The notes beneath the pieces are model-generated. The model saw only the letters and a program-made list of their open reading frames with translations. It was not told the DNA's origin and did not search any database. Both the position numbers and the translations under genes were made by a program. A stretch of 64,000 nucleotides of DNA from Gammaproteobacteria bacterium (GTDB lineage: Bacteria; Pseudomonadota; Gammaproteobacteria; UBA4575): the NCBI GenBank assembly GCA_028279275.1, contig JANQOB010000020.1, positions 1,890-65,889 of the forward strand. Direction: 5' to 3'. Shown piece after piece: positions 1 to 17,037 of the stretch (positions are counted from its first letter, which is position 1; the number at the start of each line of letters is the position of its first letter).

Positions 1-395
1 ATCCAGATGCCGTCGCTAATGGTGATTACGATGATGCAGATAACAATGCTGCAATTAATTGTACTAACGTTACGAATGATCCTGCGCATGTATCCAATCC
101 AGCACCAGCATGTTCTGGTACAGAAGTTTGTACTGTCACACAATTAGCACAACTCGATGTATTTAGAGCAAAGTGCGGACAGTTCTTAGCAGGCACCGGT
201 GCACTTGTTGGTGGTGCAGCAAATTTATTACCTAATGGAACACTGGCAATAACATGTACAGATTCTAGCGTAGGTGTAGCACCGGCATGCGAAGGGGATA
301 ACACACGTACGGTAACCGTTAGTTGGCAAGATCCGGATCAAAAAGGCAATGCTGGAGCTACATTGCAAGTTCAAGTTAATGCGAGATTCTTATGA
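1..395 (+). CDS. pilV: Type IV pilus modification protein PilV, C-terminal part (truncated by the window start)
   Basis: Frame open from position 3 (PDAVANGDY...CTVTQLAQLD...LLPNG...VTVSWQD...ARFL*). Its TGA at 393-395 overlaps the pilW ATG (ATGA), and its position before pilW-X-Y1 fits. Confidence 0.8.
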   Translation, partial: PDAVANGDYDDADNNAAINCTNVTNDPAHVSNPAPACSGTEVCTVTQLAQLDVFRAKCGQFLAGTGALVGGAANLLPNGTLAITCTDSSVGVAPACEGDNTRTVTVSWQDPDQKGNAGATLQVQVNARFL

Positions 396-1171
396 ATATG
401 ACTAATGTAAATTTACATAAACAATTTGGTCTCTCAATTGTTGAATTGATGATCGCATTAGTATTGTCACTAGTCGTAATGTTAATCACGACAAGCATCT
501 ACGTCAGTAATAAACAAACATATCGATTTTTGGATCAATATAGTTTGCTACAAGAAAATGGACGCTTTGCAATATTCTTTTTACGTGAACATATATTGCA
601 GGCAGGTTTTCCACGCCAGTCAAATGTTGATCCGTTTCCTGTAGTGCCGGGCAACAATACGGGCACAAATGGAAGTGACACGATTACTGTGCAATTTAGA
701 TCTGCAGTAGATTGTTTAAATGATGTACCTGCTGGTGCATTACCTCTACGGCTTACACAAAATACTTTTCAACTTGGTGATTTAGACGCAGATGGAGTAA
801 TCGAATTGACATGCAATGGTAATGGGCTTGTTGGTGGCGTAGACCAACCTGCACAACCCCTAGTGGATGGCATTGTAAATCTACAGGCTGAATACGGTGT
901 AGACACCGATGCGGATGGAATTGCAAACACCTATGCAAATTCTGCTGTCGTGCAAGCAGGAACAATTGGTGGCGCTGGCCCGGATTGGAACAACGTTGTT
1001 TCTATGCGTGTTGCAGTACTTGTTGAAGGGGAGCCCAATACATTAGATCAAGCGCAGTCGATTACTTATAGCTTACTAGGTCAACCAGTAACTCCAGCTG
1101 CAGACCGTACTCCACGACGTGTTTTTACAACAACCATTCCTTTGCGTAATCGCAATAAAACAATTATTTAG
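392..1171 (+). CDS. pilW: Type IV minor pilin PilW
   Basis: Prepilin cleavage motif QFG/LSIVELMIAL, LQENGRFA motif, and C-terminal LVDGIVNLQAEYGVD...VVSMRVAVL...FTTTIPLRN. Confidence 0.9.
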   Translation: MNMTNVNLHKQFGLSIVELMIALVLSLVVMLITTSIYVSNKQTYRFLDQYSLLQENGRFAIFFLREHILQAGFPRQSNVDPFPVVPGNNTGTNGSDTITVQFRSAVDCLNDVPAGALPLRLTQNTFQLGDLDADGVIELTCNGNGLVGGVDQPAQPLVDGIVNLQAEYGVDTDADGIANTYANSAVVQAGTIGGAGPDWNNVVSMRVAVLVEGEPNTLDQAQSITYSLLGQPVTPAADRTPRRVFTTTIPLRNRNKTII

Positions 1172-1696
1172 GTGGCAATTATGATGAATTCAATTAGTAA
1201 TCAAAATGGTGTTGTATTAGTTGTTGGTTTGTTGATGTTGCTTGTTATTACGGTCGTAGGCGTAACGGCGATGAGTGATACAGCGATGAATGAAAGAATG
1301 ACCTCAAACCACCAATTTCAAACCTTAAGTTTTCAAGCAGCGGAATCAGCCATTCGTGATAATTTTGATATCGCCTCCGTCTCGCCTTCTGTTACAGCAG
1401 TGAATTGGTTTGTTGATCCAGCGCCTACAAATTATAACGTAGATATTCAAAGCGGTACTCCTCTGGGAGTACAAGCAGACGCAAGCATTCAATTTTGTGG
1501 AGAAGAATTACCTATAGGCTCAGGATTTTGCAATGGTCTCGCAGGAGGCTGTGATATTGATCAGGTTTTTGATGTAAGAGGTGAAGGACGAGTAAGTTCA
1601 CTCGGAACTCAAGAGCAACATATGCGTAGAGGAGCACGTGCCATGCTTAGTGCAGGATTAGCATTTGATACAACAAAATGTGATCAGGTGCCATAG
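1172..1696 (+). CDS. pilX: Type IV minor pilin PilX (start may be ATG 1181)
   Basis: QNG/VVLVVGLLMLLVIT lacking Glu5, plus the SFQAAESAI motif typical of the PilX N-terminus; operon position fits. Confidence 0.88.
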   Translation: MAIMMNSISNQNGVVLVVGLLMLLVITVVGVTAMSDTAMNERMTSNHQFQTLSFQAAESAIRDNFDIASVSPSVTAVNWFVDPAPTNYNVDIQSGTPLGVQADASIQFCGEELPIGSGFCNGLAGGCDIDQVFDVRGEGRVSSLGTQEQHMRRGARAMLSAGLAFDTTKCDQVP

Positions 1697-1742
1697 ATCA
1701 AAAAAAGGATTTTAAGGTTATTTTTTTAAAGAGAGCTAGATA

Positions 1743-4700
1743 ATGAGTATGTTAGTAAGAAAGTTACATGTTGTTCTGTTTGTAAGTCTGACAACATTTA
1801 TTGTAAGTAGCACACAAACATTTGCAGAAGATATAGAGATTTATAACAGTACGCAAAAAGTTCCAAACGTTCTTTTTATCATCGATTCTTCTGGAAGTAT
1901 GGATGATGATATTAACGGAGATGATCCGAGTTCTACGGGACTTCCATCGAAATGGAGTTTAGTCACTACTGCTTTAGATGGAATTTTGTCTGAAAGTTAT
2001 TCCAACTTAAATGTTGGGTTTATGAATTTTGCCGGTGATAATGGTCGAGGCGTTGATTTTCCAGTGGCTGATATTAACGGGTCTGCTAAATCTGTAGAGC
2101 CATCTGTTTCAGATCCTAATGAATCCTACTCAAGTTTGTTGCGACGATTCATCACTAATCTTCCCGCTCCTGATGATAGTACACCAATAACTCAGTCCTT
2201 GTATGAAGCGGCTCTCTACTATAGAGGTGAAAACGTTGATTATGGAGCACAAAACCCTGGAACCTGGAATGATGCAAATTCTGAATATACGGGAGCACAT
2301 GTAGAAGCTGCTGGGCCGCGCACTTATTCTGGCGGCACTTGGAACGGTTCGGGTTTTACGGGAACGCCAAGATACAACTCACCCATAGGCGTGTGTACGG
2401 AAAATTACATTGTACTTCTATCTGACGGTATACCGAGGAGACATGACGACGATGTAAAAGATTACATTAAAGAACTGTACGATCCAGATAAAAGCGATTG
2501 TAATGACATCTCGGATATTTTCTCAGATGATGATGATGTAGAAGATGGAGAATGCGCAGAGGATCTTACCTATTATTTGAAAAACTTTGATCAAAGTTCT
2601 ATTGCTGGTACCCAGACTGTTACAACTTATACTATCGGATTTGCTTTAGCTAACGATACTGAGACAAAAGAATATATGGAGAGTCTTGCAACGGCTGACC
2701 AAAATGGATTTTATGATGCAGGAAATAGTAGTCAGCTTGTGACCAGCTTTAAACAAATTGTAGACGATATTATTGAAAATCGACCAAGGGCAATGGCGAG
2801 AGTTGGTACGACATTTGATTTAACATCGCTTTCATCCAGTAGGGACGAAATATATGTACCTCTATTTAATGCAGAGCCTAACTTTCCACGTTGGCAAGGA
2901 AACTTAAAAGGTTATACTTTCGATGCTTCAGGAGAATTAAAAGGATTGAATGGTAATTCTGCTCTTGTAACCGATGCCAACGGTAATGTTGTCTTTAACG
3001 ATGCATCTACAAGTTACTGGTCTACAGCGCAAGATGGAGAAAGTGTAGCGCTTGGCGGTGTGGCGAGTCGTCTGAATGCAACGACAAGAAATGCTTTCAC
3101 GGACGATGGTCCGGGAACATCGCGAACATTACAGTCATTGGACACAGCAAACACGTCTTTAACTGGTAACCCCGCAATATTTGGTTTACCAGGTTCTACG
3201 CCTGCAGCGGATATACAAAAGCTGATCTCTTGGACACGCGGCTTTGATGTGTATGATGAGGACGGAGATCTCGATATCACCGAGCAACGCAACTTCATTG
3301 GTGACGCATTGCATACAGCCCCTATAGTTGCAAGCTATGACGGTAACGATACAGATTCGATGCTAACGGGTTCACCTGCTATTGAACGTGTTGCGTACTT
3401 CATGACAAACGAAGGGTTTTTACATGCGATCAACGTTACCGGTAATACTTCAAGCGACGGCGGCAACGAATTGTTTGCCTATATGCCAAGCGATCTGCTG
3501 GATAACTTAGTAACATTACAAAACAATGCAGTAGGCGGTTCAAAAGTATATGGATTAGATGGTCCACTAGTGCTATACCAAGTAGGTGGTCCTACCAATG
3601 TGGCCGGTGACAAATACCTGTATTTTGGTATGCGTCGCGGTGGTATGAATTACTATGCTATGAATGTAAGTAATCCTAACGCTCCCACATTAATGTGGAC
3701 CATTGAGGGCGGCAGCGGTGATTTTCAAGAACTTGCACAGACTTGGTCATCTCCGATCGTTACAAAAGTTATGTATGACGGAGCTGAAAGACTCGTATTA
3801 GTGCTCGGTGGTGGTTACGATACCATTCAAGATACGGCAACAGTACCTACACCAGATACTCAGGGTAGAGCAATCTATGTTGTGGATGCTGTTACAGGAC
3901 AGAAACTTTGGTCAGCGGGACCTAGTGGCAGTCCCGATACACATACATTAAATCTCTCACTTACAAATGGTATTGCCGGAGATGTTTCGGCTATCGATTT
4001 GGATAATGACAGCATTACAGACCGCTTATATTTTGGAGATTTGGGTGGTCATGTTTGGCGTATTGACTTTCAAGGAGACCTAAAAACGGGAACTGCGGGT
4101 TTAGCGAATGACTACTCCGGATATATGCTTGCAGACTTGCAAGGTAATGATGCGGCCAATACCCGGCGCTTCTTTTCCAGACCGGTTGCTGCGCGTACAG
4201 AAAACGGAAAACTAGCGGTCACAATTGGTTCTGGGCATCGCTCACACCCATTGGACTCAACCGTACAGAATCGCTTCTACACGATATACGATCCGAATAT
4301 CAGTGGCGTACCTACTACCGTGCCGAGTCCAATAACCGAGAGTGATTTACAGAATATCACTGATTTTACTACAGGGTATACGGACTCATCTAAAAGCGGA
4401 TGGAAAATCAATTTAGGTACGGGTGAAAAAATATTTAATGAAGCTTTAGTGTTACGTGGTGAAGTATTTTTCACAACCTATATTCCACCCGTTGTGCTTT
4501 GCGAAGATGTACCAAATGGATCACGCTTGTTCGCCGTTGATCTTGAGGGGAAAATTACAAGAAACTTGGATGGAGATATTACAAATGGTGATGAAGCCTA
4601 CGTTAATATTCTTAACTTTGGGATTCTTCCTAAGTTATCTCTGCATTATGGTGGTGCCGGACAAGTAAATGGAATTTTCCTGCCAAACTTTAAGAATATC

Positions 4701-11679: not shown

Positions 11680-12306
11680 ATGATTACAAGTAAATTTTCA
11701 GTACTCTTTTTAATAATATTTTTAATTTTGAGTGCAAGTATCTTCGCAGAAGACGATATCCGTTATGTCACCGATGAATTTGAAATCACTGTCCATCGTA
11801 ATATGAGTTTGAATAGTGATGTGGTTGCAGAGTTAAAGAGCGGTACTCCTGTTAAAGTTTTAAAAGCTAACCGTGATGAAGGTTATGTAATGATAGCCAC
11901 TAGGAATGAGAAGATTGGTTGGATGTTGGAAAGCTATCTGCTTGATGAGCCAGCGGGTCGTCAGAAATATGAATCTTTGAAAAAAGAGTATGACCAGCTA
12001 AGAGCGGAATTTGATACTCAATTGCAAGAACGCACTTTAAAACTTTCAACAGAGCTGAAACAGGTTAAAAATATTTCTAAGCGACCACTAGAGATAGAAA
12101 AAGAAAATCAGCAATTGAAAGACTTGCTTCAAAAAGAACGCGACAGGACTGAGATAATTAAACAAGAAAATCGAGCATTTAAGTCTATTCACAAAGACAG
12201 GCAATGGCTTGTAACAGGCGCTCTGATTGCGATTGGGAGTTTAGTGTTGGGTTTGGTTATCACCAAAATTCCCTGGCGAAGACGCAAAAGCTGGGGAGAA
12301 CTATAG
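11680..12306 (+). CDS. SH3-domain protein (YgiM/TIGR04211-like)
   Basis: Signal peptide, RYVTD...LKSGTPV...GW SH3 domain, coiled coil, and C-terminal TM followed by RRRKSW. Confidence 0.85.
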   Translation: MITSKFSVLFLIIFLILSASIFAEDDIRYVTDEFEITVHRNMSLNSDVVAELKSGTPVKVLKANRDEGYVMIATRNEKIGWMLESYLLDEPAGRQKYESLKKEYDQLRAEFDTQLQERTLKLSTELKQVKNISKRPLEIEKENQQLKDLLQKERDRTEIIKQENRAFKSIHKDRQWLVTGALIAIGSLVLGLVITKIPWRRRKSWGEL

Positions 12307-12322
12307 GGTTAAGATGCTTGCT

Positions 12323-12961
12323 CTAAGAATCTAACATTTTAACAGGCAATGATTTAGCATCATTAATCATTGATTCAAGTGAATTTGTATCGGGTATTTC
12401 TTCTACCCGATTTTGCTCAGCATTTGAGTTGGCTAATTTATTATGTAATGCGTTTGCCTCTTGTTGAGCTAAATCTTGTGTTGAATAAATTCCTGCATAT
12501 TCCATCAATGCGGCAAATTGACCATCAATGCCTTTTACACGCATCAAATCCGACATACTGGCCCATTTAAGTATAACGAAATCCTCTATACCAATATGAT
12601 TTGCAACCTCTATACGGCCATCCATATTGCTACATTTTTCAAGTAAATCTTGTGTAGTCGAAATACCTTTATCACGTAGTTTTGAACCAAAATTCTCACC
12701 GATTCCTTCTACCTCCTCCACATCATAACTGCTTAGATCTGCTTTCGATGAAGTATCAACAGTGGTAAGCGTAGTAAGTGGCTCGGTTGTATCTACAATT
12801 TGTTGTGAGTGATCATCTTCATCAAGCTTCTCTCGTCTGTCTGCCTTCAACTCAACGGGTTTTGTTTGGCTAGAGAATTTTGCAAGCCAATAACCGATAA
12901 CAGCTCCTATTAACGCCGCACCTAGCAAACATAGCCACATTTGTAAAATTAAATAGCTCAT
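12323..12961 (-). CDS. Membrane-anchored DUF4332 (helix-hairpin-helix) protein
   Basis: N-terminal TM, VEEVEGIG...KGISTTQDLL, and WASMSDLMRVKGI...YAGI...LA. Confidence 0.82.
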   Translation of the reverse strand: MSYLILQMWLCLLGAALIGAVIGYWLAKFSSQTKPVELKADRREKLDEDDHSQQIVDTTEPLTTLTTVDTSSKADLSSYDVEEVEGIGENFGSKLRDKGISTTQDLLEKCSNMDGRIEVANHIGIEDFVILKWASMSDLMRVKGIDGQFAALMEYAGIYSTQDLAQQEANALHNKLANSNAEQNRVEEIPDTNSLESMINDAKSLPVKMLDS

Positions 12962-12994
12962 TGAAAAAATCTCTCTGTTTTAATTTCTATTTCT

Positions 12995-13345
12995 TTACTT
13001 CTTCTTATCCTCAACAGTAGATGACTCTGTTTGAGGAGTTGGGTTTTCATTTTTGACTTCCGGTACAGCAATAATTAATTCGTTATTAACAATGCGTACT
13101 CCATCAACTTGTTGTGCAATTTCATTTGCACGTGTTTTTATCTCTATGCTGTCAACTTCACCTTGTAAGAAAATATCACGACCATCTGTTGTAATATTTA
13201 TATCATTCAGATTTTGTTCAACAAATGCTGTATGAGTACGTGTATCAATATCGTTTTGAATGACAAATACTTGCGTATAGATACAAAAATATCCGAGCAG
13301 GGCGAATAAAGATAAACCAAATAAAAAAATCAAAGGTCTATTCAT
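12995..13345 (-). CDS. Single BON-domain membrane protein
   Basis: N-terminal TM, then DGRDIFLQGEV...AQQVDGVRIVNNEL. Confidence 0.85.
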   Translation of the reverse strand: MNRPLIFLFGLSLFALLGYFCIYTQVFVIQNDIDTRTHTAFVEQNLNDINITTDGRDIFLQGEVDSIEIKTRANEIAQQVDGVRIVNNELIIAVPEVKNENPTPQTESSTVEDKKK

Positions 13346-13522
13346 CCAAATTCTCCATTACATTTTTACAAGTATTGTATAGCAATGAGGCTTAGAAATT
13401 TTCATTGAAAATATCTTTGTAGTTGATCAATTTAGGAAAAAACAGGCTAGCGTATCTGTTATTTGTTTTCAATAATTAAATAATGAAGGTATTAAATACC
13501 TTATTTCATCTCTGGAGAAGAT

Positions 13523-13747
13523 TTACGAAATATATTTATATTGATAAGAACAAAGAGTGACCTCCCCAAAATATACTATTGAAAATATAGTTTGGGGAAG
13601 CCACTCTTTTTTCATTTTTACTTTTTCTAAACGACGTTTAGACTTGTTACTTTTACGATGTACACCACCTTTGCTAAGCAGTGGATGATTATGCAAAAGA
13701 TTTCTATGCCGAGTAAATTTAACCGGCAGTTTAGTCTTGTCAGGCAT
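13523..13747 (-). CDS. Small basic protein; candidate ArfA-like alternative ribosome-rescue factor
   Basis: AGGAG SD. Residues 1-50 are strongly basic (RNLLHNHPLLSKGGVHRKSNKSKRR...KKEW), and the hydrophobic tail is encoded by a long hairpin. The CDS is well supported; the function is inferred. Confidence 0.65.
   Translation of the reverse strand: MPDKTKLPVKFTRHRNLLHNHPLLSKGGVHRKSNKSKRRLEKVKMKKEWLPQTIFSIVYFGEVTLCSYQYKYIS
13552..13609 (-). promoter_or_regulatory. Long intragenic mRNA hairpin (candidate RNase III or premature-termination site)
   Basis: mRNA AAAGAGUGGCUUCCCCAAA-C-UAUA / UAUA-U-UUUGGGGAGGUCACUCUUU forms 19 contiguous bp plus 4 bp. Two of the pairs are G:U and work only on the coding strand. 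Confidence 0.75.
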
Positions 13748-13782
13748 TGCAATTCTCCTAATTAGTATCTAATAATTAAAGT

Positions 13783-14013
13783 TCAAGCAGCTTCTTTCAG
13801 GAGCGTACCGTCCTGTATTGCCTGGCGAATATAATCCATAAAATACAGAGAATTTTTTTCCGCTACTAGCACCTCGTCACGCATAGTGTTAAGAGGAACT
13901 GGAAAGCTATACATCATTTCACTATAAGGAACAGTCACAGCATAGTACGCTATTCCATTTTGATAACGTAAAAATTTAGCCTTGTTGCTAATGCTTATGT
14001 CATTTGTGTTCAT
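13783..14013 (-). CDS. Small uncharacterised 'FPVP' protein, paralog 2, C-terminal -EAA
   Basis: GGAAGGTGG SD; AKFLRYQNGIAYY...YSFPVPL...YFMDYIRQAI; aligns with 14038-14265. Confidence 0.8.
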   Translation of the reverse strand: MNTNDISISNKAKFLRYQNGIAYYAVTVPYSEMMYSFPVPLNTMRDEVLVAEKNSLYFMDYIRQAIQDGTLLKEAA

Positions 14014-14037
14014 ATTCCACCTTCCTATAAATGAAAG

Positions 14038-14265
14038 TTAAGCAGCTTCACTTTTTTCCAATTTCTCATCCAGTTTTTGGGCATGAGCCTTAATATAAGG
14101 ATAAAAGCGGTTAACCCGGTCTTCATTCAGAAAAACCGACTGACCTGAACCTTTAATAGGTACAGGAAACTTAAAGCCACTTTCTGTGCGGTACCATAGT
14201 TTTCCTGATAGGAAAAACATGAAGCGCACGCTCTCGTTGTTTTCAAGAATTTGATCAAGCTTCAT
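14038..14265 (-). CDS. Small uncharacterised 'FPVP' protein, paralog 1, C-terminal -EAA
   Basis: AAGGAG SD; VRFMFFLSGKLWYRTESGFKFPVPI...FLNED...FYPYIKAH. Confidence 0.85.
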   Translation of the reverse strand: MKLDQILENNESVRFMFFLSGKLWYRTESGFKFPVPIKGSGQSVFLNEDRVNRFYPYIKAHAQKLDEKLEKSEAA

Positions 14266-14334
14266 TTTGTATCTCCTTTTAAAACGTTAAATAAATCCTC
14301 TAGTTGGGTCAGTTAAAATCACAAAAAACAAGTC

Positions 14335-14419
14335 AAAAAAAACCCCGGTGCTCACGCTACCGGGGTTTCTTGGTATTTCCGGAAGGTGAGCTGCACCTTC
14401 CTATAAATTTGGAAGGTAC
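14335..14419 (-). promoter_or_regulatory. Transcription attenuator with mutually exclusive hairpins and an intrinsic terminator
   Basis: Segment 1 (14411-14419) pairs with segment 2 (14393-14401). Segment 2 alternatively pairs with segment 3 (14381-14388). Extended segment 3 (14379-14391) can pair with the terminator 5' arm and loop (14350-14363). The terminator is CCCCGGU-A-GC-GUGA-GC-ACCGGGG-U8. Confidence 0.8.
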
Positions 14420-14575
14420 TTAAGCCATGAAAATATTTTGTATTTTCATTTGTTTAGTGCCCATTTGTTGTGTGTCTATTGCAAGGCGATGCAGTGACGT
14501 ACACTTAAACGGCACAACAGAACGACATGTATACATGGCGTTATTTGAGACTAGTTGTTGCATAAATTTTTTCAT
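14420..14575 (-). CDS. Leader peptide, 51 aa (MKKFMQQLVSNNAMYTCRSVVPFKCTSLHRLAIDTQQMGTKQMKIQNIFMA)
   Basis: Translated by hand. It starts 9 nt after a -10 box, and its TAA abuts attenuator segment 1. It is absent from the ORF track because it is under 60 aa. Confidence 0.7.
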   Translation of the reverse strand: MKKFMQQLVSNNAMYTCRSVVPFKCTSLHRLAIDTQQMGTKQMKIQNIFMA

Positions 14576-14612
14576 CGGCGGCGAACTATACTCTTTTAAA
14601 TCTGTATTGCAA
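14576..14612 (-). promoter_or_regulatory. Sigma70-type promoter with GC-rich discriminator, giving a near-leaderless transcript
   Basis: Minus strand reads TTGCAA-16 nt-TATAGT-TCGCCGCCG-ATG. Confidence 0.7.
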
Positions 14613-14667
14613 TATAAAATGTTTTAAATTTATGTTTTAAATTCTACCGTCTATCTATTAATTTGTA

Positions 14668-14974
14668 TTAGCGATACTTCTTTTCGCAGGCTCTACGTAT
14701 TCGAATTACCGCATCTACACTTTCAACTCCGACCATATGCTCAAGTAAACATTCGTTATATCTACGCTCATCACTCATAATAACTTTTGAGGGACCGCTG
14801 CCGTAATTCTCTTCACAGGCCTCTGCTATAAAGCGACTGGCAGCATCAAGCTTGGCATTGTCGAGATGCTCCAATATACAATCCTCATATGCATAGCGAT
14901 TTTTCGATGACTGCATTTAGGCTAAATACCGCTATGAAAAACATGGTTATTAGCATGTAGAAGCGAGCAGACAT
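14668..14974 (-). pseudogene. Secreted four-cysteine two-repeat protein (VF_A0006-like), apparently frameshifted
   Basis: A signal-peptide ORF (ATG 14974, MSARFYMLITMFFIAVFSLNAV) is out of frame with the YEDCILEH...ACEENY / YNECLLEH...ACEKKY body. Could be a sequencing error. Confidence 0.55.
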
Positions 14975-15041
14975 TTATATTTGAACCGCATTTAGTGAAT
15001 GAGTTCCATAGAATACATCCAGCTAGCGTACAAACACTAGT

Positions 15042-15515
15042 CTAGAGATCTCGAATTTTAAGACGTATATATTCTTGCAGGATATGGTAGCTGTCGCGCG
15101 CCTCATCCTGCGTGATGTGATTGGTAACGAGCTGCCATTGGACATTATTCGCATCGGGAAGATTTTTTTCGAGAGTACTTAGAATTTTTTTACTATCATC
15201 AATACGAACTGCATCCCGGCGCAACTCACTTTGATAGCGGTGTTTAATCATGCTTTGAGAAAAGCGGGTATTGCTAAAAAAGAAAATTAATGCGTATGAA
15301 GTATTTGGATGGTTATTAAATTCAAACTCGTAAGTTTTATGATATGGGGCTTGACTGGCGTATGCATTGACTTTGTTTAGCTTAGATAAAGAAATATTAT
15401 TTTGTATTTGAGTATATTGTGTTTGCTTTTGGTAATGCTGAAAATAGCTACAGCCAGCACACATGACGGCAAAAACAATCATGCAAACATATTTGTAAAC
15501 ATATAATTTATTCAT
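15042..15515 (-). CDS. Hypothetical lipoprotein
   Basis: Lipobox-like CAGC after a hydrophobic stretch; 157 aa. Confidence 0.65.
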   Translation of the reverse strand: MNKLYVYKYVCMIVFAVMCAGCSYFQHYQKQTQYTQIQNNISLSKLNKVNAYASQAPYHKTYEFEFNNHPNTSYALIFFFSNTRFSQSMIKHRYQSELRRDAVRIDDSKKILSTLEKNLPDANNVQWQLVTNHITQDEARDSYHILQEYIRLKIRDL

Positions 15516-15700
15516 TTAAGCCAACCAATGTGTAGAAGGTAACAAAACCCTTCCTGGATAGGGTTAAATGTAAACTACACTTGCTCTAAAAATCATATTT
15601 TAGTGTAGGATAAAGTATCTACACTTCTGTTTATCGCTGATTAAGAGGATTGTATTTCCCGATATATGGTGACTTGTTACTGAGTTATATTTTAAGCAAT

Positions 15701-16567
15701 TTATTTATCGGCACTCTTCGTATGGGCATATTCACGTAGAAATACTGGTAGAGGTTTTTTTTCACCTGGGTTTTGTTGTTCGTGTTTTAGTAAAAAATTT
15801 ATGCGTCCTTCCGTTGAAGGATGTGTGCTCAAGAAATTCGGAATTTCTGTCAATTCTGTTTCGGTATTTTTTATGTACTGGAAAAATTCGGTTGCTCCTG
15901 ATGCGTGCCCATAAAACTTTACTAAAAGTTCACTTGCAAATTTATCTGCGTCAGATTCTTGTTGGCGACTAAAAGATAGATTAGTTATGGCCGCTGTATT
16001 ACCTAAGAAGCTTTGTAAAATATTGGATCCATCAGCGCCAAAGATCGCTAATAAAAAAATCGATACTACTATACTTCTTCCCATGCTCCGTAAAGGGTCG
16101 CGTTTATAATGATGTGCCATTTCATGAGCAAGTATCATGCTCAGTCCATTTTCAGATTCTACAGACGCAAGCAAGCCTTTTGTAATAACGATGTGACCGC
16201 CAGGCATTGCGAATGCATTAGCTTGTGCTTCGTTAGCTATCGCGAGCTGAAACTTATGTTCAACAAAATCTTTACCTGCACTGGTATGTAAATCATCTAC
16301 CAAAGTTTGTAGATACTGCAGGCTTTTTATGCCTTGGTCACTTTCGTCCACAGTGAAAGGCATGATATAGAGTCCATCTTTACTAAATAATTCTTGTTCA
16401 TAATCAATGGGTATATATTTGACTAAGTGATCAGCTGCTAAACCTAAGATGATGACAACTACGATAATTACACCGATTGTGCCAGCGGTAAGTATGAAAA
16501 ATGATTTTAACGGATGCTCATCTGTGACATTGATGCCTTCAGGTGGTTGTGTTGGTGTATATCTCAC
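15701..16567 (-). CDS. M48 family zinc metallopeptidase
   Basis: NAFAMPGG, HEMAH, FSRQQESDAD and FLSTHP motifs. Confidence 0.93.
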   Translation of the reverse strand: MRYTPTQPPEGINVTDEHPLKSFFILTAGTIGVIIVVVIILGLAADHLVKYIPIDYEQELFSKDGLYIMPFTVDESDQGIKSLQYLQTLVDDLHTSAGKDFVEHKFQLAIANEAQANAFAMPGGHIVITKGLLASVESENGLSMILAHEMAHHYKRDPLRSMGRSIVVSIFLLAIFGADGSNILQSFLGNTAAITNLSFSRQQESDADKFASELLVKFYGHASGATEFFQYIKNTETELTEIPNFLSTHPSTEGRINFLLKHEQQNPGEKKPLPVFLREYAHTKSADK

Positions 16568-17037
16568 TTAGTATTTTCAAGTTTATTGCCAATCGAAATG
16601 GCAGTTCCATAGGCGAGCACTTCAACGGCACCCACACTATTGCGCTGGTTACTATTTTTGCTGATTGAAGCAGTTTCAACTCGTGTATTCATCACAACAA
16701 ATGCATTATTCAATTTTGCTTGCTCCTTCATGCGCAACAAAGCTTCTCTTCGTGCACGATCAAGTAAAGATTCATATTGTGTAACTTTTCCGCCAAATAA
16801 CATTTTTAATGAGGCAACAAATTTCTTGAAAAAATCGATAGAAATAACTGTATTCCCCGTTACTAACTCTGCTTTCAATTCATGTTGGTGAATAGCAGGT
16901 GGAGTTCTCATGGTAACTACCGGTAGTTTTAGTAGTAATTTTTCTCTTTCGATTATTGACTTAAAGTGTTTTTTTTCTGCATATTGTCCAAAAAAGTAAC
17001 CCAGCATTAATAGAACAACAAGAACAATAATTTCCAT
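16564..17037 (-). CDS. YbjQ/UPF0145 family protein with N-terminal TM
   Basis: FGGKVTQYESLLDRARREALLRM...VLAYGTA. Confidence 0.9.
   Translation of the reverse strand: MEIIVLVVLLMLGYFFGQYAEKKHFKSIIEREKLLLKLPVVTMRTPPAIHQHELKAELVTGNTVISIDFFKKFVASLKMLFGGKVTQYESLLDRARREALLRMKEQAKLNNAFVVMNTRVETASISKNSNQRNSVGAVEVLAYGTAISIGNKLENTK

Follow-up and report, generated by a model that had tools for sequence, protein, structure and literature searches.

What is the role of a short, methionine-rich open reading frame (ORF) that begins almost at its own promoter, ends on a series of mutually exclusive RNA pairings and an intrinsic terminator, and is followed by three small genes? This question is raised by positions 14335 to 14612, on the minus strand, of a 64,000-nucleotide (nt) stretch of DNA from a Gammaproteobacteria bacterium (lineage UBA4575; GenBank assembly GCA_028279275.1, contig JANQOB010000020.1, positions 1,890 to 65,889), the whole of which is called the window hereafter. 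In a preliminary description made from the sequence, a leader peptide and an attenuator responding to general ribosome stalling were predicted here. Based on the folding and comparative data below, the locus probably carries a transcription attenuator of the ribosome-dependent (leader-peptide) type, on an mRNA that would be leaderless or nearly so, inherited together with the genes that it would control.

Layout and predicted folding of the leader

The promoter, leader ORF, three pairing segments (seg1, seg2 and seg3), terminator and U8 tract that had been listed in the preliminary description are all present on the minus strand where it had placed them, and a conserved motif lies beyond the terminator.

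14607..14612, minus strand: -35 hexamer TTGCAA, from the promoter scan; TTGCA(A/T) is kept in the 20-locus alignment
14585..14590, minus strand: -10 hexamer TATAGT, the same hexamer in 20 of 20 aligned loci
14576..14584, minus strand: GC-rich discriminator TCGCCGCCG, between the -10 hexamer and the ATG
14420..14575, minus strand: leader ORF, 51 codons plus TAA (14422-14420), ATG at 14575, Met-rich, with no Shine-Dalgarno sequence
14411..14419, minus strand: seg1 GUACCUUCC, directly 3' of the stop codon; pairs with seg2
14393..14401, minus strand: seg2 GGAAGGUGC, with seg1 or seg3 as alternative partners
14379..14391, minus strand: seg3 GCUCACCUUCCGG, with seg2, or the terminator 5' arm and loop (antiterminator), as partners
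14343..14365, minus strand: terminator hairpin CCCCGGUAGCGUGAGCACCGGGG, stem CCCCGGU/ACCGGGG, upper stem GC/GC, GUGA loop; hairpin of the minimum free energy (MFE) structure
14335..14342, minus strand: U8 tract, directly after the terminator hairpin
14296..14310, minus strand: conserved motif GACCCAACTAGAGGA, between the terminator and the first downstream gene

The two promoter hexamers are separated by a 16-nt spacer and match the consensus at 9 of 12 positions in a sigma-70-like scan. Among 20 loci, 19 have the ATG 9 nt after the -10 hexamer and the remaining one has it 10 nt after; the distance is also kept in L041 and L042, which have GATAAT and AATAAT as their -10 elements. Transcription is predicted to start at the ATG or 1-4 nt before it, and because the -10 element lies only 9-10 nt before the ATG, there is no room for a Shine-Dalgarno sequence on the transcript, which agrees with the nearly leaderless mRNA of the preliminary description. 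Downstream of the stop codon, seg1 and seg2 are separated by a 9-nt loop, seg2 and seg3 by a single A, and seg3 and the terminator by 13 nt. The predicted pairing energies are -14.3 kcal/mol for seg1 with seg2 (1:2), -12.5 kcal/mol for seg2 with seg3 (2:3), -15.2 to -16.4 kcal/mol for seg3 with the terminator 5' arm and loop (3:4), and -23.1 kcal/mol for the terminator. A short leader ORF, an intrinsic terminator and a predicted antiterminator, incompatible with the terminator and blocked in turn by an upstream pairing, are found together here, as in known attenuators.

It is proposed that transcription would begin at or just before the AUG of the 51-codon ORF. A ribosome following RNA polymerase to the stop codon would cover seg1, seg2 would pair with seg3, the terminator would form, and a transcript of ~240 nt would end at the U8 tract (OFF). 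If no ribosome had initiated, or if one were held up more than ~5 codons before the stop, with the in-frame AUG codons as likely hold-up points, seg1 would capture seg2, and seg3, left free, would pair with the loop and 5' arm of the terminator ahead of synthesis of the 3' arm, allowing the polymerase to read on into the downstream genes, here termed A, B and C (ON). The default state without a ribosome would be ON.

Stepwise folding with seg1 masked and unmasked, which had been suggested as a check, gives the predicted outcomes. With seg1 free and the transcript cut before the terminator 3' arm, the fold consists of 1:2 and 3:4 (-30.7 kcal/mol). Masking of the first 16 nt, in imitation of a ribosome that occupies the stop codon, lets 2:3 form as soon as seg3 emerges, and with seg1 masked in the full transcript the fold consists of 2:3 and the terminator (-35.9 kcal/mol). 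Both the 99-nt switch (z = -5.1) and the 256-nt transcript (z = -5.5) are more stable than shuffled sequences; for neither of them was any of 200 shuffles as good. The arrangement of a 7-mer, its reverse complement and the same 7-mer again, taken alone, is not beyond chance, since such triples occur at 2 sites in the window against a mean of 0.97 in 30 Markov controls (both strands). The case for the switch therefore rests on conservation of the whole unit. The second triple, at ~15575-15625 (CTACACT / AGTGTAG), lies in the gap between the genes for an M48 peptidase and a lipoprotein-like protein; it was rejected as a candidate, its folding being no better than that of shuffles (z = -0.7).

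Conservation of the proposed switch and of its reading frame

By DNA search, the region was found in 21 of 41 relatives, all from the window's own family, and only two parts are widely alignable, namely the promoter with the first codons and the block from seg1 to the terminator. When 56 family genomes were searched with a covariance model of this 3' block, 25 gave matches. L043 and L044 proved to be plain terminators and were excluded, leaving 23 of 56 genomes, which span 7 genera; one alignment from the covariance search, which included antisense terminator matches, did not enter the counts. Three other genera gave 0 of 13, 0 of 3 and 0 of 16 genomes, and a fourth contained only one excluded terminator match. 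A profile search with protein A returned exactly the same 23 genomes as the attenuator, and in the loci examined the attenuator is always directly upstream of gene A, which starts 90-170 nt past the terminator. The identical set of genomes and the constant adjacency indicate that leader, switch and operon are inherited as one unit; the family genomes are related, so that these counts overstate independence. Public records with family members are labelled as uncultured Gammaproteobacteria, apart from one labelled Thiotrichales.

Is the leader ORF translated? Its frame is open in all 23 leaders, with a probability of an open frame in per-sequence shuffles of 0.006-0.09. Among the 46 frame-by-leader cases for the two other frames, 36 contain a stop within the first 11 codons, and the longest run is 47 codons. 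The ORF varies from 36 to 56 codons in length (20 loci), and the middle of the peptide is barely alignable; the two ends, N-terminal MKxFxQQ and C-terminal KQVKxI(T), are conserved, and the rest is poorly conserved. No Pfam family was found for the leader peptide, and its two NCBIfam rows are far below their cut-offs (best 16.5 bits vs 400). The ORF ends on TAG in 18 leaders, TAA in 3 and TGA in 2, and this stop is held at an offset of -2 to +3 nt from seg1 in 22 of 23 leaders, as matched by a search for the seg1 motif (L042 was unmatched). At this distance, a ribosome on the stop codon would overlap seg1, the size of the ribosome footprint being taken from established knowledge.

The strongest frame-specific signal comes from internal ATG codons, of which there are 91 in frame, compared with 11 and 14 in the other frames and an expectation of 18.4 +/- 4.3 (z 16.7). 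Every leader contains 1-7 internal Met codons, and the in-frame total is ~5-fold over expectation. Over-representation extends to Gln (z 6.5), Ala (z 6.4) and Phe (z 4.6), and the conserved N-terminal MKxFxQQ accounts for some of the excess of Gln. Because a frame-specific excess of ATG cannot arise from RNA structure, the simplest reading is that the leader ORF is real and translated. Most of the internal Met codons (84 of 91) lie more than 5 codons upstream of the stop, where a paused ribosome would leave seg1 free, and they are probably the preferred sites for stalling or sensing. Any upstream stall should open the switch, not stalls at Met alone. With regard to Met-specific attenuation, codon enrichment is present, and no methionine-related operon was recognised.

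In the preliminary description, the pairings, the leader ORF and the close placement of its stop codon had been proposed from a single sequence, and all of these hold across the homologues. Its view that Met enrichment is modest, and thereby favours a general sensor, does not stand against the ~5-fold in-frame excess.

Conservation of the pairings was counted over 25 sequences, comprising the 23 family members and two paralogous copies described below. Of the cells in the ON structure, 86.7% are paired, compared with 29-49% for slid partners, and within it the 1:2 core is 92.6% paired. Pairing reaches 95.3% in the distal helix of 3:4, where 3 pairs have changed on both sides. The covariation check called for by the preliminary description also came out in favour of the antiterminator, with a score of 0.144 vs 0.115 +/- 0.006, a value that none of 500 shuffles equalled. 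For the OFF structure, which is nearly invariant, pairing amounts to 93.6% overall, 99.4% in the 2:3 core and 92.4% in the terminator, where an upper C-G pair is replaced by U-A in 3 sequences. The terminator 5' arm CCCCGG is invariant and its 3' arm variable, as expected if the 5' arm has two partners, and in L020 a change in the terminator loop is matched by a change in seg3. Across the wider class of switches described below, native duplexes of seg3 with the terminator have a mean of -16.1 kcal/mol compared with -14.05 kcal/mol for swapped partners, and the native value is better than the median swap in 60 of 83 cases.

Several observations weigh against the proposed attenuator. At equilibrium, the unmasked full-length RNA favours 1:2 with the terminator (-39.1 kcal/mol) over 1:2 with the antiterminator (-29.5 kcal/mol), so that the ON state depends on kinetics. 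Conversely, with seg1 masked and the 3' arm absent, 3:4 (-16.4 kcal/mol) is more stable than 2:3 (-12.5 kcal/mol), so that the OFF state depends on 2:3 forming first. Both outcomes would thus rely on the order of folding, a dependence that is usual for attenuators. In L008 and L014, a loop change is uncompensated in seg3, and the 3:4 duplex reaches only -12.2 kcal/mol. The in-frame AUG codons can also be read in a second way, as back-up starts that would make the OFF state more reliable, and this is not separable from Met sensing. GC-rich discriminators, known from rrn-type promoters, are expected to shut a promoter under the stringent response, and the discriminator found here would fit awkwardly with an amino-acid-starvation signal; it would confine expression to conditions in which good growth signals coincide with failing leader translation. 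For the motif at 14296-14310, which in 20 of 23 loci has YCCAACTAGAGRR-like counterparts, possible roles are those of a processing site, an operator and a promoter for an alternative sigma factor; as an unrecognised promoter or operator it would give the downstream genes control of their own. Finally, there is almost no variation in seg2, seg3 or the terminator loop, and the 2:3 helix is without any two-sided change; this conservation of sequence exceeds the needs of pairing, and a bound factor could account for it.

The post-terminator motif leads to one alternative, in which the leader is an independent gene, complete with terminator, for a functional Met-rich small protein, and transcription of A-C is separate, for example from a promoter at CCAACTAGAGG. 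Such a gene would agree with the conserved peptide ends, with the recurrence of the motif and with the terminator that is formed in the full-length MFE structure. We regard it as unlikely, since between its ends a peptide of 36 to 56 residues is poorly conserved compared with protein A (mostly 73-92% identical), conservation of the ORF is lower than that of the non-coding seg2, seg3 and terminator, the antiterminator covaries, and the same switch precedes unrelated genes. Moreover, the promoter scan found no sigma-70-like promoter between 14334 and 14266, the interval in which the preliminary description had named a separate promoter as the evidence against its own reading.

The near-invariance of GGAAGGU, CUCACCUUCCGGA and GCGUGAGC beyond pairing needs leads to another alternative, in which A, B or C, or some other ligand, would bind seg2, seg3 and the loop, with the ORF merely in support. 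The model of protein B, and by paralogy protein A, offers a weak likeness to S1/OB RNA-binding folds (Z 4.7) in its favour. An attenuator controlled by a factor seems improbable to the same degree as a separate small-protein gene, because it leaves unexplained the stop-to-seg1 geometry, the open frame and the frame-specific excess of ATG, and because the core switch also stands before operons for EF-G-like proteins, ABC exporters and transfer RNAs (tRNAs) that lack A, B and C. The least probable alternative, a trans-acting or dual-function small RNA (sRNA) in which the ~240-nt terminated transcript would act on mRNAs through the CU-rich, anti-Shine-Dalgarno-like seg1 and seg3, can draw on the strong structure of the transcript (z = -5.5), on the complementarity of CCUUCC to Shine-Dalgarno-like GGAAGG, including the ribosome-binding site of gene B in the window (GGAAGGUG), and on the attenuator-derived sRNA rnTrpL (PMC6614838) as a precedent, but it accounts for neither frame conservation nor stop placement, is without an Rfam match, and as regards targeting of gene B by seg3 was rejected because GGAAGGTG is restricted to L001, with a generic AGGTG elsewhere. 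In the region 12000-17000, an Rfam search at E up to 10 returned only sub-threshold chance rows, with nothing reaching a gathering score.

The downstream genes

If the ribosome-dependent attenuator operates as proposed, its output in the window consists of three small genes, and the last of them contains a structured RNA element of its own.

14038..14265, minus strand: gene A, 75 amino acids (aa), the first gene that would be regulated; supported by its ORF and homologues
13783..14013, minus strand: gene B, 76 aa, a distant paralogue of A; ORF, with 27% identity to A
13523..13747, minus strand: gene C, 74 aa, a basic peptide; ORF, found in 19 loci
13552..13609, minus strand: long hairpin in the 3' part of the gene C ORF, from folding and covariation

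Gene A has 35 homologues, none of them named; most share 73-92% identity with the window's A over the part that aligns (70-88% in the set of 21 that were aligned). Protein B is related to A with E = 1e-4, and a B-type ORF is present in 16 of 23 loci, with normal length in 12; odd lengths occur in L013 and L018, and B is without a start codon in L010. No meaningful Pfam or NCBIfam family was found for A, B or C, and a search of the ESM Atlas with A and C returned only unnamed clusters below 0.9. Across Pfam, NCBIfam and the ESM Atlas, no recognisable link to methionine was found for these proteins. The AlphaFold2 model of A is poor, with a predicted local distance difference test (pLDDT) value of 52, and that of B (pLDDT 75) consists of three strands and a helix. 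A Foldseek comparison of the B model with the Protein Data Bank (PDB) gave nothing at E <= 0.001. In the wide VIA comparison, many rows were S1/OB folds, and the best hit had a Z of 4.7 and a root-mean-square deviation of 3.0 over 60 aligned residues; no row scored high enough to indicate more than a shared general arrangement. An S1/OB-like RNA-binding role for B, and by paralogy for A, may be kept as a weak lead from the model.

Most A and B proteins end in ...AA (KAKAA, KEAA), like the LAA end of the transfer-messenger RNA (tmRNA) tag, and the genome has a tmRNA with the tag ANDDNYALAA. A link between these ends and degradation of the ClpXP type would be speculation.

Gene C has a basic conserved core, RRNPLHNHPLLSKGGVHRKxNKSKRR...KKEW, and a variable hydrophobic tail (19 loci). 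The hairpin within its ORF has ~25 bp and an energy of -37.5 kcal/mol in the window (z = -6.6), and it is found in 19 of 19 loci at -15.5 to -37.5 kcal/mol. Of its 25 pairs, 12 are changed on both sides, and 0 of 500 shuffles score as high. In L004 and L018, the stop codon of gene C lies inside the hairpin loop, which indicates that the constraint acts on the RNA. In passages of PMC8012679, a stem-loop or terminator inside the 72-codon ORF of arfA or brfA is described as yielding a non-stop mRNA, and it is proposed that further small rescue factors may escape sequence searches. Gene C is like arfA and brfA in its ~70-codon ORF, basic middle, variable hydrophobic tail and stem-loop in the 3' part of the ORF. 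Unlike arfA, it gave no match to Pfam ArfA (PF03889) up to E = 10, either for C or for its 19 homologues, and no match to PDB sequences, where a profile gave a single chance row (E = 1.1). A six-frame search of the whole genome with the ArfA model returned nothing over the cut-off, and when residues 1-56 of C were modelled in complex with release factor 2 of the genome, the score was 0.00, which speaks neither for nor against binding. Protein C thus resembles ArfA in design, and membership of that family is not claimed; by analogy, it is a candidate alternative ribosome-rescue factor, unrelated to ArfA in sequence. Because gene C looks like the ArfA/BrfA type, with an internal mRNA hairpin, the output operon plausibly serves translation stress.

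On the other side of the leader, the gene 5' of its promoter (14668-14916, minus strand) encodes a VF_A0006 four-cysteine-like protein (NCBIfam 58.1 bits, cut-off 65), and it holds the same upstream position in most family loci.

Related switches and known attenuators

A second, paralogous copy of the attenuator is present in two family genomes, G014 and G041. It has a promoter TTGACT...TAGACT with an ATG 10 nt later, and a leader ORF of 51 or 58 codons, the difference being an in-frame 21-nt indel. Its TAG adjoins seg1 UACCUUCC, followed by seg2 GGAGGGUG and seg3 GCGAGCCUUCCGG. The distal antiterminator helix has been fully rewritten, from GCUCAC/GUGAGC to GCGAGC/GUUCGC, and still pairs (-20.2 kcal/mol). 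Located 3' of this copy are a boxA-like element GCTCTTTAACAA, an array of tRNA genes (Thr, Tyr, Phe, Asn, Ala, Leu) and then the RNA GOLLD. At locus L045 of G014 (86-1800, minus strand), the attenuator, boxA-like GCTCTTTAACAA, tRNA genes and GOLLD are on one strand, with 153.5 bits for the GOLLD model RF02032. The order attenuator, boxA and GOLLD on one strand was also found in L207 (G041), L208 (G073) and L209 (G072) with 155.8, 147 and 137 bits, the gathering score being 150 and the values for G073 and G072 just under it. In an Rfam search of 12 related loci, only tRNA and GOLLD were matched, and no family for the switch. In the available passages of bioRxiv 10.1101/2024.12.08.627333, the function of GOLLD is given as not known, and the attenuator is not mentioned. 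The arrangement described here suggests that GOLLD may be induced when leader translation fails.

To find more distant relatives, one genome per species was scanned for the pattern CCTTCCGR, 8-22 nt, CCCCGG, 9-15 nt, CGGGGTTTT, which occurred at at least 120 loci. Among the matches listed, 80 loci with a GGAAGG-type seg2 and enough upstream sequence were analysed; the remaining listed matches are mostly ordinary terminators after a coding sequence. Since the core sequence was specified in the pattern, ascertainment explains part of the core's wide occurrence, though not the recurring architecture or the kinds of output gene. Among the 80 listed loci, 33, mostly from Burkholderiales, precede a gene for a protein like elongation factor G (EF-G), with Pfam GTP_EFTU in the one tested. 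In 27 of these 33, an ORF starts 7-10 nt after a -10-like hexamer, and the leader ORFs mostly have 13-14 codons, e.g. MKINHTTQARLNT. In EF-G-type loci in the range L055-L171 (Roseateles, Pelomonas, Acidovorax, Variovorax), a small ORF (MRTYDKLIATIP...) lies between the switch and the GTPase gene. A further 7 of the 80 precede genes of ~390 aa, and the 3 that were scanned carry an ABC_membrane domain, which was also found in one listed-locus protein with a different N-terminus. These ATP-binding cassette (ABC) exporter loci are L059, L069, L079, L101, L111, L119 and L124, in records of Pseudomonadales/Cellvibrionales type. Their leader ORFs have ~50-58 codons and start ~28-30 nt after the -10 hexamer, so that these members are not leaderless. 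At least 5 of the 80 precede tRNA arrays, and 12 belong to the window's own family. The tRNA-type leader gave no match when compared with phage records.

Classical leader-peptide attenuators include trpL, hisL, leuL and pheL of Escherichia coli. In common with these, the window's locus has a leader ORF, mutually exclusive hairpins, an intrinsic terminator, control that would depend on the position of the ribosome, and one enriched codon, here AUG. It differs from them in having five segments instead of four, so that an absence of translation would give ON and not super-attenuation. In addition, the regulatory codons are scattered and not in a run, the mRNA is predicted to be leaderless, and the genes regulated are not biosynthetic.

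A second group for comparison consists of leader ORFs that respond to antibiotics or to translation stress, including those of PA5471.1, bmrB and tet(M). The toiL leader ORF, which precedes topAI-yjhQ (PMC12121999), and the hflXr leader of Listeria (PMC6310831) are of this type. In these systems, as is proposed for the window, stalling is sensed through a small ORF upstream of genes whose products act on translation or drugs; the EF-G-like and ABC exporter outputs of the related switches are parallel to them. The leader ORFs of toiL, hflXr, PA5471.1, bmrB and tet(M) are led by Shine-Dalgarno sequences and the window's leader is not, and the relay of GGAAGG with CCUUCCGG is not known to be shared by them. 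toiL reportedly acts through Rho. To our knowledge, leaderless leaders are unusual in Gammaproteobacteria. Leaderless short ORFs are reported among the mycobacterial polycysteine ORFs (bioRxiv 10.1101/834739). As in those attenuators of Actinobacteria, a leaderless short ORF as first cistron would control downstream genes by its own translation; the actinobacterial leaders belong to another phylum, sense Cys, and have a different mechanism and different outputs. In the parts of the open-access literature that were covered, no description was found of a Met-rich or leaderless proteobacterial attenuator of the present type.

Altogether, it may be suggested, as a possibility that falls somewhat short of likely, that a widespread and hitherto undescribed family of translation-failure attenuators exists in Proteobacteria, sharing the relay of stop codon, seg1, GGAAGG, CCUUCCGG and CCCCGG terminator. 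Its members would be mostly leaderless and would use one signal, the ribosome not arriving, for outputs as different as an Arf-like operon, EF-G paralogues, ABC exporters, and boxA-tRNA/GOLLD operons. If this is true, the nanocage RNA GOLLD would be induced by failing translation, and the switch would be the first regulatory context found for GOLLD/tRNA-array operons in the open-access literature, as far as the portions covered extend. If gene C has the role proposed, it would be a new alternative ribosome-rescue factor unrelated in sequence to those known. If the mechanism is true, the leader would be a compact natural sensor of the coupling between transcription and translation, working without a Shine-Dalgarno sequence and switched on when ribosomes are missing. 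It would then serve as a regulatory flag for genes that are wanted when translation fails, which in this bacterium are those of three uncharacterised small proteins.

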